This document shows, in pieces, positions 4,335 through 7,163 of a stretch of 23,043 nucleotides of DNA. The position numbers were made by a program, and so were the translations under genes. Numbering within the stretch: position 1 is the stretch's first letter; the number at the start of each line of letters is the position of its first letter. The DNA is taken from the IMG/VR virus record IMGVR_UViG_3300045988_132558, positions 1 to 23,043 of that record, one strand, 5' to 3'. Source of the DNA: a virus. Taxonomy: Duplodnaviria; Heunggongvirae; Uroviricota; Caudoviricetes. The notes below the pieces were generated by a model. The model saw only the letters and a list, made by a program, of their open reading frames with translations. It did not search any database and was not told where the DNA came from.

Positions 4335-4624
4335 AGAAAATCGACCTGAGAAAAGCTGCACGCGGTCGCGCTTGTACTGTGCGTATCCCCGGTGTGTGCA
4401 ATCACAATCCTGAAACCAGCGTTCTGGCTCATTATCGTCTCGCCGGAACGTGCGGCACAGCCATCAAACCTCACGATATGCAGGGCGCTATCGCCTGCAG
4501 TGCGTGTCACGATGCTATCGACGGACGTACAAAAACGGATTACGAGTACGACTCATTGTTGTTGATGCACGCTGAGGGTGTTCTCAGGACGCTGGCCATC
4601 TGGCGCGATGAGGGGGTTATCTGA
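4331..4624 (+). CDS. DUF1364-family protein, YbcO-like (nin-region putative nuclease), 97 aa
   Basis: LRKAARGRACTVRIPGVCNHNPETSVLAHYRL...IACSACHDAIDGRT closely resembles my recollection of E. coli DLP12 YbcO, including the conserved Cys cluster. Overlaps both flanking genes by ATGA. Confidence 0.6.
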   Translation: MKKIDLRKAARGRACTVRIPGVCNHNPETSVLAHYRLAGTCGTAIKPHDMQGAIACSACHDAIDGRTKTDYEYDSLLLMHAEGVLRTLAIWRDEGVI

Positions 4625-5295
4625 TGAGCAACGAATATTTGCTGGAGTTCACCCGAATTAAGTTGCGGAGCGTGCTACTGGATTTATCCGGGGGAACGAA
4701 AGGGCAACTGGAAGCGCTGAGCGAGCACCCACCGGCAGACAAAAACTTTTACCAGCGCAAAAACATTCACCGCGTGGAGCTGGAAGATCGTATGGTTGAC
4801 GCGTTGGTAACACCCGTTTACGCGCTGGAGACGTTCGGTAGGCGTCGCCCGGCACCGCCGATTAATGATTTTGAATTTGCTGATTCACCGTGGCGCCGCG
4901 CCGTGAACTCGCTCGACGTTAGCCAGCAGGCGTGGTTGCGCTATTGCTACGGTGGTGACCTTGCGTTCAAGCACCAAACAGCCATTTGTGAGGCTGTCTG
5001 GAATCGCTATAAAGCAAACATCCCCGCGTCAACTCAGAGAAAAGTAGTCAAGCGCCTGCTTTCGCTGGTGTGGTTGTCCGTGCAGGCGGTCGCAGCAGCA
5101 AATAAACGCGAGGACTTTAAGGAGATGGCTGGATCTGCGCTAGCTGGAATGTTGTCTGTTTCTCGTTCCACCTGGTGCGAAACATACTCCCCGCACTGGG
5201 AAGGAATGAAAGAGGCGGTGAGAGCACTTGATGAAGTGGCACTTTTTGCAACTTTGCATCATTATCAGAACCATTTAGACGACGTTTGCGTATAA
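4624..5295 (+). CDS. Putative late-gene antiterminator (Q-like) by position, 223 aa
   Basis: Last gene before the lysis cassette and directly upstream of a promoter-like element and intrinsic terminator (5291-5390), as for lambdoid Q-PR'-tR'. No confident sequence match, and no Cys4 zinc finger of the lambda Q type. Confidence 0.4.
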   Translation: MSNEYLLEFTRIKLRSVLLDLSGGTKGQLEALSEHPPADKNFYQRKNIHRVELEDRMVDALVTPVYALETFGRRRPAPPINDFEFADSPWRRAVNSLDVSQQAWLRYCYGGDLAFKHQTAICEAVWNRYKANIPASTQRKVVKRLLSLVWLSVQAVAAANKREDFKEMAGSALAGMLSVSRSTWCETYSPHWEGMKEAVRALDEVALFATLHHYQNHLDDVCV

Positions 5296-5345
5296 TGCTT
5301 GCAAAACCGAACAAAATAGGCCATATTTAACGCTAATTTGGTATG
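5291..5345 (+). promoter_or_regulatory. Candidate late promoter region (PR'/qut analogue)
   Basis: Perfect TATAAT hexamer at 5291-5296 overlapping the stop codon of the upstream gene; TTGCAA at 5299-5304. A convincing -35/-10 pair could not be settled by eye. Confidence 0.3.
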
Positions 5346-5363
5346 TTGCCAAATTTCTAAGAA

Positions 5364-5390
5364 CCTCGCCACGGCGGGGTTTTGTCGTTT
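5364..5390 (+). terminator. Rho-independent terminator (tR'-like) between the putative Q gene and the lysis genes
   Basis: Stem CCTCGC/GCGGGG (one G-U pair) with a 4-nt loop, followed by TTTTGTCGTTT. Confidence 0.5.
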
Positions 5391-5407
5391 CTGAATCAGG
5401 AAAAATC

Positions 5408-5791
5408 ATGTCTGAACCTCTAACCGCTGGCGTTGCTGCTGGCTCGGCGGGGGTGACGTTTGCTGCGTTATTTCCTGAGGCAACACCTGCAGTGATGATC
5501 TGTGCGCTGGCAGGCGCAGCTCTCTATGTGTTGTCGTCCGGGCAGCATCGATTCTGGAAGCAGGTTATTTTCGCACTCATTTCGTTTGTTGGCGGTGTGT
5601 ATTGCGCTGAGACAGCATCAGCCATCATTACCGGTATTCTGAACGCGGTGCTGAGTCACCTGAACCCTCCCGTAACAGTAAAAGTCTCTCCCGCCATTGG
5701 TGCACTGGTTGCATCAGTAATCAGCGTTACATCACTGTTGCGAATCATGTCACAAGCTCGTTTATGGAAATCAGATAAGGGGATGAAATAA
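5408..5791 (+). CDS. Putative holin (multi-pass membrane protein), 127 aa
   Basis: ORF track 5408..5791 (+). Several hydrophobic segments and a charged C-terminus (KSDKGMK). First gene after the late terminator, upstream of the endolysin. Confidence 0.45.
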   Translation: MSEPLTAGVAAGSAGVTFAALFPEATPAVMICALAGAALYVLSSGQHRFWKQVIFALISFVGGVYCAETASAIITGILNAVLSHLNPPVTVKVSPAIGALVASVISVTSLLRIMSQARLWKSDKGMK

Positions 5792-6075
5792 TGACCCTGC
5801 ACTCTGTTCTCATCAATGCCAATGCAATTATCTGTCTGATGCTGGCATTGCGGTTAATGTTTTTTCAAAAAACAGGCCGCTATCGTTTTTTCATCTCACT
5901 AACTGCTTACCTGGCGATTCTGTCTGCTGCGTGGATAGCCCTACGAATTTTTTACGGGAAATATACGCAGGTTGATCCCGCAGAGTTCTTTCTCAACCTC
6001 ACCATCTGTATTGCTGTCTGGCGGGCACGAGGAAATATTTCAAAAATAACAGGAGACAGGTATGACCGATCCTAA
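5791..6075 (+). CDS. Small membrane protein (second holin or antiholin candidate), 94 aa
   Basis: ORF track 5791..6075 (+). Two or three hydrophobic helices; start overlaps the previous stop (ATGA at 5788-5791); within the lysis cassette. Confidence 0.35.
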   Translation: MTLHSVLINANAIICLMLALRLMFFQKTGRYRFFISLTAYLAILSAAWIALRIFYGKYTQVDPAEFFLNLTICIAVWRARGNISKITGDRYDRS

Positions 6076-6541
6076 ATGGCTAATTGAGGCACGAAAAAAT
6101 CTCGGCATTCGGGAAATGAAAGGGAAGCAACATGCTGCAGAAATTGTGCAGTACTGGAAAGATATCAAACGCGGCGGCATTAAGGATGATGAAACCCCGT
6201 GGTGCGCTGCCTTCACCGGAGCAATGCTGGAACGTGTAGGTATTCGCTCAACGCGTTTTGAGTCTGCGAATTCTTATCTCGATTGGGGTAATGAACTGAA
6301 GGAACCCGCCTATGGATGCATTGCTATTCTGTCTCGGTCTGGCGGCGGTCACGTTGGCTTTGTTGTCGGGAAAAATGCCGCCAGGGATTTAATGATTTTG
6401 GGTGGCAACCAAGCAGACGCAGTGAATATCAAAGCGTTTCCGAGCTCACGCGTTACCGGCTATCGCTGGCCAGCAGGTCAAACGGATGTTCCACAATCAC
6501 TTCCATTGGTGAATGCTGAGAAATCTATCTCAGAAGCGTAG
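6062..6541 (+). CDS. Endolysin candidate, Cys/His peptidase type (CHAP/NlpC-P60-like; TIGR02594-like), 159 aa
   Basis: ORF track 6062..6541 (+). AGGAGA Shine-Dalgarno upstream. Candidate catalytic Cys (PWCAAF) and His (GGGHVGFVVG) in the spacing typical of cysteine peptidase endolysins. Family from motif and position. Confidence 0.5.
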   Translation: MTDPKWLIEARKNLGIREMKGKQHAAEIVQYWKDIKRGGIKDDETPWCAAFTGAMLERVGIRSTRFESANSYLDWGNELKEPAYGCIAILSRSGGGHVGFVVGKNAARDLMILGGNQADAVNIKAFPSSRVTGYRWPAGQTDVPQSLPLVNAEKSISEA

Positions 6542-6548
6542 GTAAAAC

Positions 6549-6740
6549 GTGAAAAAACTTCTCTTAGCTGTCGCGTTCTTCACTATGGCAGGCTGTACAC
6601 ATTCGACATACACCGAAGCGACTCGCGCTGACGGCAGCAGCATTAAACACGTGATGATCGCGCCGGGTACGAAAATTACCACTGCGGACGGTGGTTGTAT
6701 TGATTCAACTGGTGTCGTAACGGCTTGCCAGTCAAAGTGA
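6549..6740 (+). CDS. Small lysis-associated lipoprotein (o-spanin/Rz1-like candidate), 63 aa, GTG start
   Basis: ORF track 6549..6740 (+). Signal peptide with lipobox (LLLAVAFFTMAGC) and a second Cys pair in the mature part. No separate i-spanin (Rz-like) ORF seen. Confidence 0.45.
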   Translation: MKKLLLAVAFFTMAGCTHSTYTEATRADGSSIKHVMIAPGTKITTADGGCIDSTGVVTACQSK

Positions 6741-6841
6741 TTGTAACTTGCTGTTTTCGATATTAAGTACCTTGAATTAGGTTTACGAGTTGGCATTATA
6801 GAAAAACTATATGGTTCACTAATGTGACATAAGGAAATATT

Positions 6842-7090
6842 ATGCCTAAGTTAAAACTTGTTAAGACATTGCTATTGCCAGGTAATAATAAGTATGAGAT
6901 TTATGCAAGAAATGAATATAGCAACGTAGAACAAATTATTCACTATAAACTGCGCTCTTGTAAGAACGAGCAAGGCCAGGATGGAATGTCTGAGGCGCAA
7001 TGGGTTATTTATAATCCATTGTTTCCATTACCAGATGACCGCAATTATGCAAGTGTATCAAATATAGACGACTATCTGGTCGATTGCTAA
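6842..7090 (+). CDS. Hypothetical protein, 82 aa (moron)
   Basis: ORF track 6842..7090 (+). AAGGAA Shine-Dalgarno upstream, AT-rich promoter-like region 6770-6800, strong terminator just downstream (7101-7121). Confidence 0.45.
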   Translation: MPKLKLVKTLLLPGNNKYEIYARNEYSNVEQIIHYKLRSCKNEQGQDGMSEAQWVIYNPLFPLPDDRNYASVSNIDDYLVDC

Positions 7091-7100
7091 GTGAAATCAA

Positions 7101-7121
7101 ACCGCCTATGGGCGGTTTTTA
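7101..7121. terminator. Bidirectional Rho-independent terminator
   Basis: Stem ACCGCC-TATG-GGCGGT flanked by AAA upstream and TTTTT downstream, between the convergent genes 6842..7090 (+) and 7164..7634 (-). Confidence 0.6.
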
Positions 7122-7163
7122 TTGCCATCACCATGGGAAGACATATAGTAATGGCATTTATCA

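Follow-up and report, generated by a model that had tools for sequence, protein, structure and literature searches.

A small AT-rich, probable moron cassette between the lysis and terminase genes of a lambdoid prophage

ORF82, the small gene that follows the lysis cluster in the window (the whole stretch of viral DNA analysed here, 23,043 nucleotides of IMG/VR record IMGVR_UViG_3300045988_132558), lies in a cassette that is a typical phage moron and not new in kind. The best explanation of the data, held with moderate confidence, is that of an accessory moron in the Juhala/Hendrix sense, a term reportedly defined by Juhala et al. in 2000, expressed in the lysogen from a predicted promoter of its own. 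Morons have a GC content unlike that of the surrounding genes, and their own promoter and terminator, with expression from the repressed prophage (PMC3594210). A preliminary description had proposed this architecture for the region; the add-on character with sharp boundaries, the deviant GC and the cassette's own conserved terminator all stand, whereas the promoter comes down to a conserved box with a weak −35 element. It is in morons that prophages keep genes that change their hosts (virulence, stress tolerance, phage resistance), and most of them are uncharacterised. ORF82 provides a clean, well-delimited example of about 350 bp, in a slot that recurs in many unrelated lambdoid prophages; as matters stand, it is one more hypothetical accessory gene.

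The ORF82 gene and its product

The lysis cluster upstream of ORF82 is annotated at 5408–6740 and comprises two holin genes (5408–5791 and 5791–6075), a TIGR02594/CHAP endolysin gene (6062–6541) and, at its end, a gene for a 63-amino acid lipoprotein (6549–6740, + strand, lipobox MAGC). Directly after it the sequence turns AT-rich, as had been noted by eye: the GC of 6741–7121 is 0.352 versus 0.493 for the whole window, and across 6700–7100 it drops to 0.335–0.375, the lysis genes lying at about 0.49–0.53. Just 0.5% of all 381-nt segments are as low in GC, and the sole other region of the window with equally low values is 20965–21430. This deviation, expected of a moron, recurs in 12 of 12 loci measured, where ORF82 has a GC of 0.34–0.43 versus 0.45–0.55 in the flanks; over the 160 nt 5' of the ORF82 ATG the value is 0.38. 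An Rfam scan (E up to 1) and a tRNA scan were empty.

ORF82 itself (6842–7090, + strand, 82 amino acids, ATG start, from the ORF list and its translation) is preceded by the Shine-Dalgarno (SD) sequence AAGGAA (6831–6836, + strand, 5 nt before the ATG, read from the sequence), so that the small gene with a good SD of the preliminary description is found again here; an A/G-rich SD is kept at the equivalent place in all family loci. The protein (9.6 kDa, pI 5.2, GRAVY −0.61), in which no signal peptide or membrane segment is recognised, can be assigned by sequence to phrog_16949, a family annotated as "unknown function" (E 8.7e-50, 168 bits, residues 1–82 on profile positions 1–82 of 83). Its homologues (n = 24) are 53–83 amino acids long, 21 of them being full-length (77–83), and the family occupies 26 distinct loci in Enterobacterales. 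Both the sequences and the structural model argue that ORF82 is a genuine protein-coding gene. In the alignment of 21 members 14 residues are invariant, and the length of 77–83 amino acids is kept down to 34% identity; dN/dS is 0.23–0.36; and AlphaFold gives a confident model (pLDDT 89, pTM 0.75), predicted to consist of a four-stranded antiparallel sheet followed by a C-terminal helix. A short ORF in AT-rich DNA might be thought spurious or decaying junk, the more so as truncated and frameshifted copies occur (P0005, P0006). Such copies indicate that ORF82 is dispensable; the idea of a spurious or decaying ORF is scarcely credible, and is already refuted by the constant length, the invariant residues, dN/dS values below 0.4, the confident model and the conservation of the SD sequence and terminator.

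The product had been described as unrecognised, and the homology and structure searches now run bear this out, with phrog_16949 as the only match: no sequence or fold relative with known function was found in Pfam, NCBIfam, PADLOC, PDB or BFVD. The best Pfam match to the family is DUF5755, which 3 of 21 members reach (E 0.039; 14.5 bits, the cut-off being 25), NCBIfam gave no match for ORF82, and the best match among PDB sequences reaches only E 0.6. In PADLOC-DB v2 (E up to 1) no family was found for ORF82, the convergent ORF156, the lipoprotein or the ORF at 7920–8483. A HMMER search of 1.84 billion representatives with ORF82 returned 6 matches in total, one of which, an 820-amino acid Ig-like repeat protein (P0010), is spurious, and a scan of genome contigs recovered one locus only (L028). 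The searched literature holds no mention of phrog_16949 or of the RefSeq protein WP_001125258. A spanin or other lysis-cassette role was also considered, the marks being an N-terminal membrane segment for an i-spanin or a lipoprotein signal for an o-/u-spanin, plus an Rz/Rz1 match. It was rejected, since by eye ORF82 has neither a hydrophobic segment nor a lipobox and no lysis family in Pfam or PHROGs matches it; in three loci (L010, L018, L020) the homologue comes after a complete Rz-containing cassette.

No structural neighbour of the ORF82 model was found. Borrelia Pur-alpha (3nm7) appears among the Foldseek PDB matches, and the PUR repeat or Whirly-like fold shares with ORF82 the order of elements (four antiparallel strands, then a helix, within some 80 residues). 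No significant superposition of the model on either a PUR repeat or a Whirly domain was obtained. The product, in which no enzymatic motif is seen, would be a small, soluble protein of beta-sheet and helix, probably oligomeric, that most likely binds another protein or a nucleic acid. Our best guess is a role in prophage-host or phage-phage conflict (exclusion or counter-defence) and not in virion production; if ORF82 is such a factor, a small new family is added to those of defence and counter-defence.

Distribution, genomic slot and origin of the inserted block

ORF82 is carried by 9 of 5426 complete E. coli genomes, and 450 carry the adjacent endolysin/lipoprotein DNA, with a break at window position 6712. 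In E. coli E24377A, SE11 and CFSAN061769 the segment 6741–7121 is present at 100% identity. The preliminary description had held that a core late gene of related phages, together with a lack of expression in the lysogen, would speak against a moron. In fact, only 9 of the 450 E. coli genomes with the endolysin region have ORF82, and it is absent from 50,697 deposited phage genomes, tblastn of ORF82 and of its distant homologue P0016 giving no match in these records. Beyond E. coli, it has been found in Shigella-type, Salmonella, Hafnia, Atlantibacter and Kosakonia prophages, and also in metagenomic loci. The gene is co-oriented between the lysis and terminase genes in 23 of 25 other loci, in a slot that spans at least five endolysin types, three Q/antiterminator families and at least five terminase types. 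In Hafnia, ORF82 is intact with its box and terminator beside integrase remnants, and in Kosakonia it is intact with no box and a weak hairpin only; in both, the flanks examined contained neither lysis nor terminase genes.

Comparison with the ST131-type prophage L002 defines the boundaries of the extra DNA. Homology stops at 6712 and resumes at 7866, the 1153 bp at 6713–7865 replacing 36 bp of L002. The discrete limits expected of a moron are thus present, but the earlier view of 6741–7121 as a self-contained unit has to be given up, the extra DNA consisting of two modules from different sources. Module A (6713–7122, + strand) contains the 3' end of the lipoprotein gene, the leader, ORF82 and the terminator; the same unit of lipoprotein end, 101-nt spacer, ORF and terminator occurs in seven Salmonella loci, the similarity of the window to L003 and L028 ends at about 7127–7137, and by sequence the module appears closest to the Salmonella and Atlantibacter copies. 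Module B (7123–7865, both strands) contains ORF156 (7164–7634, − strand, 156 amino acids), antisense to and convergent with ORF82 on the same terminator region, and ORF59 (7674–7853, + strand, 59 codons), a foreign small-terminase remnant matching the N-terminus of phrog_51 and phrog_32222. Positions 7123–7845 are 86% identical to 4788–5512 of the Enterobacter prophage L053, which points to module B as a second, unrelated import, closest to Enterobacter prophages and with no apparent functional tie to ORF82. The two modules differ in their closest relatives and their junction lies exactly at the terminator.

This arrangement bears on whether either neighbour could be a partner of ORF82. On the upstream side, the lipoprotein and ORF82 might form a two-gene module, the lipoprotein acting in lysis or exclusion and ORF82 serving it from the cytoplasm as a partner or regulator, since the lipoprotein gene, the 101-nt spacer and ORF82 follow one another without interruption and are conserved as a block, both in the window and in seven of seven Salmonella loci, and the window lipoprotein gene is 71–76% identical to the gene preceding ORF82 in the latter. 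Nevertheless, this is improbable and largely refuted by distribution, and the lipoprotein gene is taken as lying next to the ORF82 cassette and outside it: the lipoprotein, which has weak lipoprotein-family matches only, is encoded in 441 E. coli genomes that lack ORF82, and the gene upstream of the ORF82 homologue is small and unrelated in L010, L011 and L014 and missing in Kosakonia. Moreover, the first 112 nt of the lipoprotein gene are 65–67% identical to Salmonella, compared with 90% for ORF82, and such uneven divergence points to recombination within the lipoprotein gene, whose last 28 nt (6713–6740) belong to module A, and not to co-inheritance. On the downstream side, a functional pair of ORF82 and ORF156 with a bidirectional terminator in common (for example, toxin and antidote or a two-component defence) is suggested by genes that are adjacent and convergent, both missing from the ST131-type relative and both contained in the same nine E. 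coli genomes. This pairing is more improbable still and is refuted by distribution, given that ORF156 occurs at none of the Salmonella, Hafnia, Shigella-type or metagenomic ORF82 loci, that its Enterobacter and Klebsiella homologues have no ORF82 neighbour, and that the modules come from different closest relatives and meet exactly at the terminator. Both genes are uncharacterised Enterobacterales prophage accessory genes of the same lysis-to-terminase slot, but their sequences are unrelated and their distributions independent, and the ORF156 family is always antisense and directly upstream of the small terminase gene.

The accessory moron read from these data combines an AT-rich leader, in which a conserved box and a short hairpin lie, with an SD sequence, a reading frame some 82 codons long and a predicted intrinsic terminator, and would move between lambdoid prophages by recombination in or beside its flanks. 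Its landing slot would always be the permissive site after the lysis and before the terminase genes, in the orientation of the late operon, and it would have reached the window as module A, abutting an independent antisense moron (module B) at a common terminator. Like the classical lambdoid morons (lambda bor, HK97 gene 15), ORF82 is an extra gene in a syntenic slot, with deviant GC, its own terminator, a putative promoter, and presence in a minority of close relatives. In lambda, bor lies downstream of the lysis genes and antisense to the late operon; its post-lysis slot is the one used by ORF82, which in contrast runs in the direction of the late genes. ORF82 resembles neither Bor nor gp15, nor the product of any other characterised moron, in sequence or fold.

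Terminator and leader

The predicted intrinsic terminator at 7099–7123 is an 8-bp perfect stem with loop TATG and a T-run (AAACCGCC-TATG-GGCGGTTT at 7099–7118, then TTATT). For the hairpin alone (7099–7118) the folding energy is −11.9 kcal/mol (+ strand) or −12.4 kcal/mol (− strand), and the terminator scan reports 7099–7123 on the − strand. Of the two U-tracts, that of the + strand (TTTTTATT) is good and that of the − strand (TTTGATTT) weaker. A near-perfect, strong bidirectional terminator had been claimed. The perfect stem and the T-run were confirmed, and the element is bidirectional in position because the convergent 156-amino acid ORF ends at 7164; on the other hand, it is a short hairpin of canonical form and not of exceptional strength, because its z-scores against shuffles in 51-nt context are only −1.5 (+) and −2.5 (−). 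Of the 26 family loci, 24 have a hairpin with T-run 3' of the ORF, built on about nine different stems, so that across the family the terminator, a predicted element expected of a moron, appears to be conserved as a structure and not as a stem sequence.

The AT-rich leader (6741–6841, + strand) is a 101-nt intergenic region, 81–83% identical to the Salmonella loci. It contains a conserved box, TGGCATTAT (6791–6799, + strand), of the family pattern TGnCAYnnT, which 24 of 26 distinct loci have at a fixed distance of 50–55 nt upstream of the start codon, although synonymous sites between lineages are saturated (pS 0.62–0.89); its free base takes all four values, and elsewhere in the ORF82 loci TGGCAT is not enriched above chance. 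The box can plausibly be understood as an extended −10 element (TG, a free base and the hexamer CATTAT), and the transcription start would then be near 6806, if it lies some 7 nt past the hexamer. A candidate −35, TTGAAT (6772–6777, + strand, 4/6 match, read from the sequence), precedes this candidate −10 by 16 nt, and other −35-like hexamers (TTGATA, TTGCCA, TTCAAT and others; 3–5/6, by eye) are seen at the equivalent place elsewhere with 15–18 nt spacing. Alternatively, the box is the 5' arm of a helix over the start codon, 6792–6800 pairing with 6838–6846. A consensus promoter scan (at least 9/12) found no site able to express ORF82; its only + strand match in the leader (6815–6843) has a −10 that overlaps the ORF82 start codon. 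The candidate promoter is thus built on a non-consensus hexamer (CATnnT) and a −35 of 3–5/6. Of the promoter-like leader that had been proposed, the AT-richness, the box and a weak −35 were recovered, but not a consensus match, and the box can also be read as RNA structure; this promoter is the weakest of the elements noted earlier, and probably a weak promoter.

RNA structure is indeed predicted in these leaders, in which inverted repeats are also found. In the window a small hairpin, TCAC-TAAT-GTGA (6816–6827, + strand), forms part of a weak structure at 6807–6834 in a single-sequence fold, and all 6 pairs of the family consensus leader hairpin show compensatory changes, 80.8% of cells being paired versus 24–49% when the partners are slid. 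Complementarity between the box region and the SD/start region is seen in most lineages tested, and for 10 of 19 leaders its energy is more extreme than that of 98% of shuffles. The helix varies by lineage, being anti-SD in L014, L024, L028 and L039 (in L039 as a perfect 10-bp match) and anti-start-codon in the window. Predicted ribosome-binding-site accessibility in the window is 0.60 for a transcript starting after the box versus 0.30 for read-through (5% of shuffles as low), and it is lower in the long transcript for 13 of 14 leaders. Other readings of the box were rejected. The sigma-54 reading of TGGCAT fails in that the −12 TTGC element is not conserved (by eye), and a uORF beginning at (A/T/G)TG-nCA varies in length from 2 codons up, with no SD and no frame conservation (by eye). 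An antisense 88-amino acid ORF starting from the box (6530–6796, − strand) lacks an SD and has no counterpart in L039. Covariation of the free base with ORF codon 2, where 7 of 13 lineages pair, is indistinguishable from chance (by eye).

Expression in lysogeny and in lytic growth

While the prophage is repressed, a weak promoter of the extended −10 type (6791–6799, with −35 TTGAAT), active constitutively, would produce a short mRNA from about 6806 to the terminator at 7099–7123, and in lytic growth Q-antiterminated transcription from upstream would read through the whole cassette. A Q gene and a terminator-like site (5360–5383) lie upstream of the lysis genes and ORF82, and the terminator scan of the window found no terminator between the lysis genes and ORF82, which would make ORF82 part of the late transcript; inside a Q-dependent late operon and co-oriented with it, as in 23 of 25 other loci, ORF82 is expected to be transcribed late as well. 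Its absence from most relatives and its retention in prophage remnants are indirect hints of expression from the repressed prophage and of dispensability in the lytic cycle. Since an autonomous moron does not need co-orientation with the late operon, this orientation suggests that late read-through matters.

The same facts allow a possible but doubtful alternative, in which ORF82 is a late-operon accessory gene with no promoter of its own, expressed only in Q-dependent lytic growth as a counter-defence factor or a lysis or packaging helper; the box and hairpins would be mRNA-structure or processing signals, and the terminator would insulate antisense neighbours. The place of ORF82 in the late transcription unit and the uninterrupted path from the Q gene agree with it, as do the negative consensus promoter scan, the presence of counter-defence genes in the same slot of related phages (an Acb2/Tad1-like gene in L056) and the overlap of the box with the anti-SD and anti-start arms, because reading the box as an RNA helix requires transcription that starts upstream of it. 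However, a late-operon gene would not be expected to be so sporadic (9 of 450 relatives), nor to persist intact in Hafnia and Kosakonia remnants with no detected late operon, Hafnia retaining the box and terminator. The free base of TGn takes all four values, as an extended −10 predicts, and 24 of 26 loci have a terminator immediately 3' of the ORF. Q-modified polymerase ignores terminators, and the conserved ORF82 terminator is therefore best explained by transcripts that are not antiterminated. On balance, an accessory moron with a predicted lysogen promoter remains the preferred reading.

Both properties of the box could be combined in that moron. In longer read-through transcripts the box region may pair with the start-codon/SD region and reduce translation. 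The logic is that of fold-back inhibition of read-through transcripts in IS10/Tn10, reportedly described by Davis, Simons and Kleckner in 1985 (Cell 43:379, cited in PMC13181058), where the SD and start are sequestered only in transcripts entering from outside; the ORF82 cassette differs in having no transposase and a helix that changes between lineages, and the effect predicted for the window is modest (0.60 versus 0.30). To our knowledge, read-through insulation of the IS10 type is undescribed for phage morons. The joint claim, namely that the box serves at once as the −10 of a weak promoter active in lysogeny and as the 5' arm of a helix hiding the SD or start codon, that the protein is made from its own short lysogen transcript and silenced on late read-through, and that the product is a new exclusion or counter-defence factor, is speculative and, taken as a whole, unlikely. 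If the leader works as proposed, it shows how a sense-oriented moron in a strong late operon stays lysogeny-specific.

Finally, seven E. coli genomes have type I-E CRISPR arrays with a spacer that matches ORF82 at 32 of 32 positions (protospacer 7003–7034, + strand, with the PAM ATG at 7000–7002).

The late region and the elements of the cassette

The window is the late region of a lambdoid prophage. The Q antiterminator gene (4624-5295) and a terminator-like site (5360-5383) are followed by two holin genes (5408-5791 and 5791-6075), a TIGR02594/CHAP endolysin gene (6062-6541) and the gene for a 63-aa lipoprotein (6549-6740), which lies immediately before the cassette (6741-7121). After the cassette come the small terminase gene (8538-9104) and the gene for a GpA-type large terminase (8992-10953), 3' of which lie lambda-like head genes and then a contractile tail. 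No Rz/Rz1 spanin pair is recognisable in the lysis cluster (5408-6740; two holins, endolysin and lipoprotein), and the 63-aa lipoprotein is devoid of a C-terminal membrane segment and reaches no better than an E-value of 0.03 against an Rz-like spanin family. Since a KilA-N gene intervenes between endolysin and lipoprotein in the Salmonella loci, the latter may not belong to the lysis genes but be an accessory lipoprotein. Further downstream, a GTG-started ORF of 187 aa (7920-8483, - strand) matches phrog_5191 only by its C-terminal 84 residues, and its counterpart in E. coli E24377A is an 81-codon gene in the RefSeq annotation; therefore, this ORF is probably over-extended. An antisense gene at this place is also found in the ST131-type relative. 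E24377A carries the same prophage (L001) with the IS21-family element ISEc62 within the portal gene (in the region 14310-16452), so that this copy is defective; the portal ORF of the window (11183-12754) has no interruption.

An AT-rich leader, a small ORF with a good Shine-Dalgarno (SD) sequence and a terminator had been proposed to follow the lysis genes, and every one of these elements is present. The GC content is 0.34-0.38 over 6700-7100, and that of 6741-7121 is 0.352 vs 0.493 window-wide, within the lowest 0.5% of 381-nt windows. ORF82 (82 codons, 6842-7090) is preceded by the SD sequence AAGGAA (6831-6836) and followed by a perfect 8-bp hairpin, AAACCGCC/GGCGGTTT (7099-7118; -11.9 kcal/mol on the + strand and -12.4 kcal/mol on the - strand), and then TTATT. 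In position, this hairpin is bidirectional, as the convergent 156-aa ORF156 ends at 7164. The only other equally AT-rich stretch of the window (20965-21430) takes in the C-terminal part of a tail-fibre gene (20322-21239) together with the spacer that precedes the tail sheath gene. The top sigma-70 consensus match within 5200-8700 (TTGCCA, 16 nt, TATAGT; 10/12) is located at 7122-7149 on the + strand, directly 3' of the ORF82 terminator, and reads rightward, antisense to ORF156; by eye, its -10 is not kept in the Atlantibacter locus.

Moron-like architecture and the history of the block

The family set comprises 26 distinct ORF82 loci. Of the 25 other loci, 23 have the gene on the same strand as the late genes, with a lysis gene upstream and/or an HNH or terminase gene downstream, in backgrounds that include at least five types of endolysin (TIGR02594/CHAP, two lysozyme groups, Peptidase_M15_4, GH19-like and a 158-aa type), three Q/antiterminator families and at least five large-terminase types. 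The two exceptions are from Hafnia and Kosakonia, where the gene adjoins integrase remnants amid defence-type genes, and no lysis or terminase genes were found in the flanks examined. In Hafnia (L014-L016, 3345-6252), integrase fragments and a CAP12/PCTIR TIR-domain protein are nearby; in Kosakonia (L017, 5540-8924), integrase fragments and a SieA-like protein. The GC content of the ORF is 0.34-0.43 vs 0.45-0.55 for the flanks, in all 12 loci measured. A hairpin and T-run are found 3' of the stop codon in 24 of the 26 loci, and about nine different sequences make up the stems; as compared here, the terminator is conserved as a structure and not as a sequence. Similar long palindromes, GTCATTACAAAGCC...GGCTTTGTAATG, flank the cassette on both sides, about 420 nt apart, in the compared loci L018 (5882-5920 and 6302-6343) and L042 (3896-3941 and 4303-4332), and in six lineages, the window among them (7119-7128), TTATTGCCAT was seen by eye 3' of the terminator. 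These sequences may be recombination or insertion boundaries, or extra terminators.

Morons are recognised by insertion polymorphism, deviant GC and a terminator of their own (PMC3594210), and the concept of accessory loci has been also described (PMC7067206). The ORF82 cassette displays the three hallmarks. A conserved terminator right after a gene within a Q-antiterminated operon finds its simplest explanation in non-antiterminated transcripts from the cassette's own promoter, and the retention of an ORF82 homologue in two prophage remnants (Hafnia and Kosakonia; box and terminator kept in Hafnia) points the same way. On the other hand, ORF82 might be a late accessory gene of the late operon, with which it is strictly co-oriented; this is the less likely reading, and we lean, by a little, towards ORF82 as an autonomous moron. 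The moron proposed in the preliminary description is largely right on architecture (insertion polymorphism, deviant GC and terminator), and its own promoter is plausible. Genes of this kind are well known, so the interest of the case is modest.

The same description spoke of a self-contained unit, and here the unit and its history turned out to be more complex. No family member was found in 50,697 deposited phage genomes; among 5426 E. coli genomes, nine carry this version of ORF82 and 17 the divergent version of its distant homologue P0016. A 1.2-kb query across the cassette has matches in 450 E. coli genomes, and in 441 of them the match ends at about 6712, among the final 28 nt of the lipoprotein gene. 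In comparison with the ST131-type relative (L002), 36 bp are replaced by window 6713-7865 (1153 bp), a block composed of two modules. Module A (6713-7122) contains the 3' end of the lipoprotein gene, the leader, ORF82 and the terminator, a unit shared with seven Salmonella loci and with Atlantibacter. Module B (7123-7845), 86% identical to an Enterobacter prophage (L053), contains the antisense ORF156 (7164-7634, - strand) together with ~160 nt from the start of a foreign small terminase gene of the Terminase_2 type; the latter persists as a 59-codon ORF (7674-7853, + strand). Because L053 has a different hairpin at the same place after ORF156, Modules A and B join at the terminator. ORF156 homologues (a family of 156-aa hypothetical proteins from Enterobacter, Leclercia, Citrobacter, Klebsiella, Pectobacterium and Yersinia prophages) are antisense and directly upstream of a small terminase gene, and none has ORF82 as a neighbour in the loci examined. 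From this separate distribution, together with the junction at the terminator, ORF82 and ORF156 are two morons independent of each other that share a slot. Linkage with the lipoprotein is likewise secondary, since the lipoprotein occurs without ORF82 in 441 E. coli genomes and the gene upstream of ORF82 is unrelated to it in the other lineages compared. Moreover, the identity to Salmonella is 65-67% over the 5'-most 112 nt of the lipoprotein gene vs 90% for ORF82, which indicates a crossover within the lipoprotein gene.

A conserved leader upstream of ORF82

In 24 of 26 loci, the box TGnCAYnnT (window 6791-6799) precedes the start codon by 50-55 nt, its free base taking all four values. Synonymous sites are saturated or nearly so when the main lineages are compared (proportions of differences 0.62-0.89), and therefore the box is constrained and not inherited by default; TGGCAT is not enriched elsewhere in ORF82-bearing phages. 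A short hairpin between box and SD has compensatory changes in all six pairs, with 80.8% of alignment cells paired vs 24-49% when partners are slid; on four of five measures, 1-10 of 500 shuffles reach the observed value, and 62 of 500 on the fifth.

The box might act as an extended -10 promoter, made up of TG, one free base and the hexamer CATnnT, whose second (A) and sixth (T) bases are conserved. By eye, most lineages have a -35-like hexamer 15-18 nt upstream of the candidate -10: TTGAAT in the window (6772-6777, spacer 16), and TTGATA, TTGCCA, TTCAAT or similar elsewhere. CATGAT is the -10 of the weak constitutive lacI promoter. Transcription would start at about 6806, assuming a start ~7 nt past the hexamer, and give an mRNA of ~315 nt ending at the terminator. 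In a second reading, the bases overlapping and following the hexamer are complementary to the SD or the start codon. The predicted SD-region duplex is -8.5 to -12.9 kcal/mol in L014 (Hafnia), L018, L020/L042, the L024 group and L039, energies that no more than 2% of shuffles attain; it is weaker in L026 (-6.3) and L028 (Atlantibacter, -8.4), where 4-6% do. Perfect or near-perfect inverted repeats of 10-13 nt are present in L039, L024 and L018. Anti-SD stretches lie at L039 3304-3351, L024 5951-5998 and L018 5952-5990, and also in the L014 and L028 leaders. The stretch (10-13 nt overlapping or following the box) differs in sequence among lineages, e.g., TTCTTTCCTT/AAGGAAAGAA and CATTCTCCTT/AAGGAGATTG; in the window it is the start-codon region that pairs, GGCATTATA (6792-6800) with TATTATGCC (6838-6846). 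In 13 of 14 lineages, which are not independent and several of which have a small effect, the ribosome-binding region is predicted to be more accessible when transcription begins 3' of the box than when it reads through from upstream; in the window the values are 0.60 vs 0.30, and 5% of shuffled extensions give one equally low. Both readings are compatible with each other and, combined, resemble the fold-back inhibition of IS10, which reportedly (Davis et al., 1985, as cited in PMC13181058) leaves transcripts from outside promoters untranslated. This likeness is suggestive only.

The ORF82 protein and a CRISPR spacer against its gene

ORF82 is a genuine gene, with a full-length match to phrog_16949 (E-value 8.7e-50) and dN/dS of 0.23-0.36 against the Salmonella homologues. 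Protein searches (word-indexed and exhaustive) and a subsequent profile search gave 24 homologues of 53-83 aa, 21 of them full-length (77-83 aa), from E. coli/Shigella, Salmonella, Hafnia, Kosakonia and metagenomes. The family is invariant at 14 positions (L6, V7, T9, K17, Y18, E19, I32, I33, H34, Y35, L37, W54, P64 and N74). The protein (9.6 kDa, pI 5.2, GRAVY -0.61) has no recognisable signal peptide or membrane segment, and no above-threshold match was obtained in Pfam, NCBIfam, PADLOC or PDB sequences. It had been called unrecognised, and this still holds, as homology and structure searches gave no relative of known function. An AlphaFold model from a 21-sequence alignment (pLDDT 89, pTM 0.75) predicts strands at 5-11, 16-22, 28-40 and 51-61 and a helix at 72-80, the same element order (four strands, then helix) as in the PUR repeat. 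The PUR-type structure 3nm7 is among the Foldseek matches (E-value 1.7, TM 0.20), and this possible kinship is a lead, not a result. ORF82 encodes a small soluble protein in which conserved residues, e.g., I32-I33-H34-Y35, occupy consecutive positions of one modelled strand; therefore both sheet faces are constrained, as would suit an oligomer or a tight complex. ORF82 keeps company with anti-repressor-like KilA-N/Bro-N genes and DNA-modification genes, and an Acb2/Tad1-like gene also occupies the slot in ORF156-bearing phages; a role in phage-host or phage-phage conflict would fit this company.

A spacer identical to window 7003-7034 (32/32) is present in type I-E CRISPR arrays of seven complete E. 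coli genomes, in an array adjoining cas2e/iap (e.g., E. coli strain 1943, NZ_CP023359.1; L027, 1501-1536). ATG, a functional I-E PAM, lies directly 5' of the protospacer (7000-7034 including ATG). None of the seven spacer-bearing genomes has the ORF82 gene, and none of the nine ORF82-bearing E. coli genomes has the spacer. The protospacer is identical in the Salmonella loci L003-L008.
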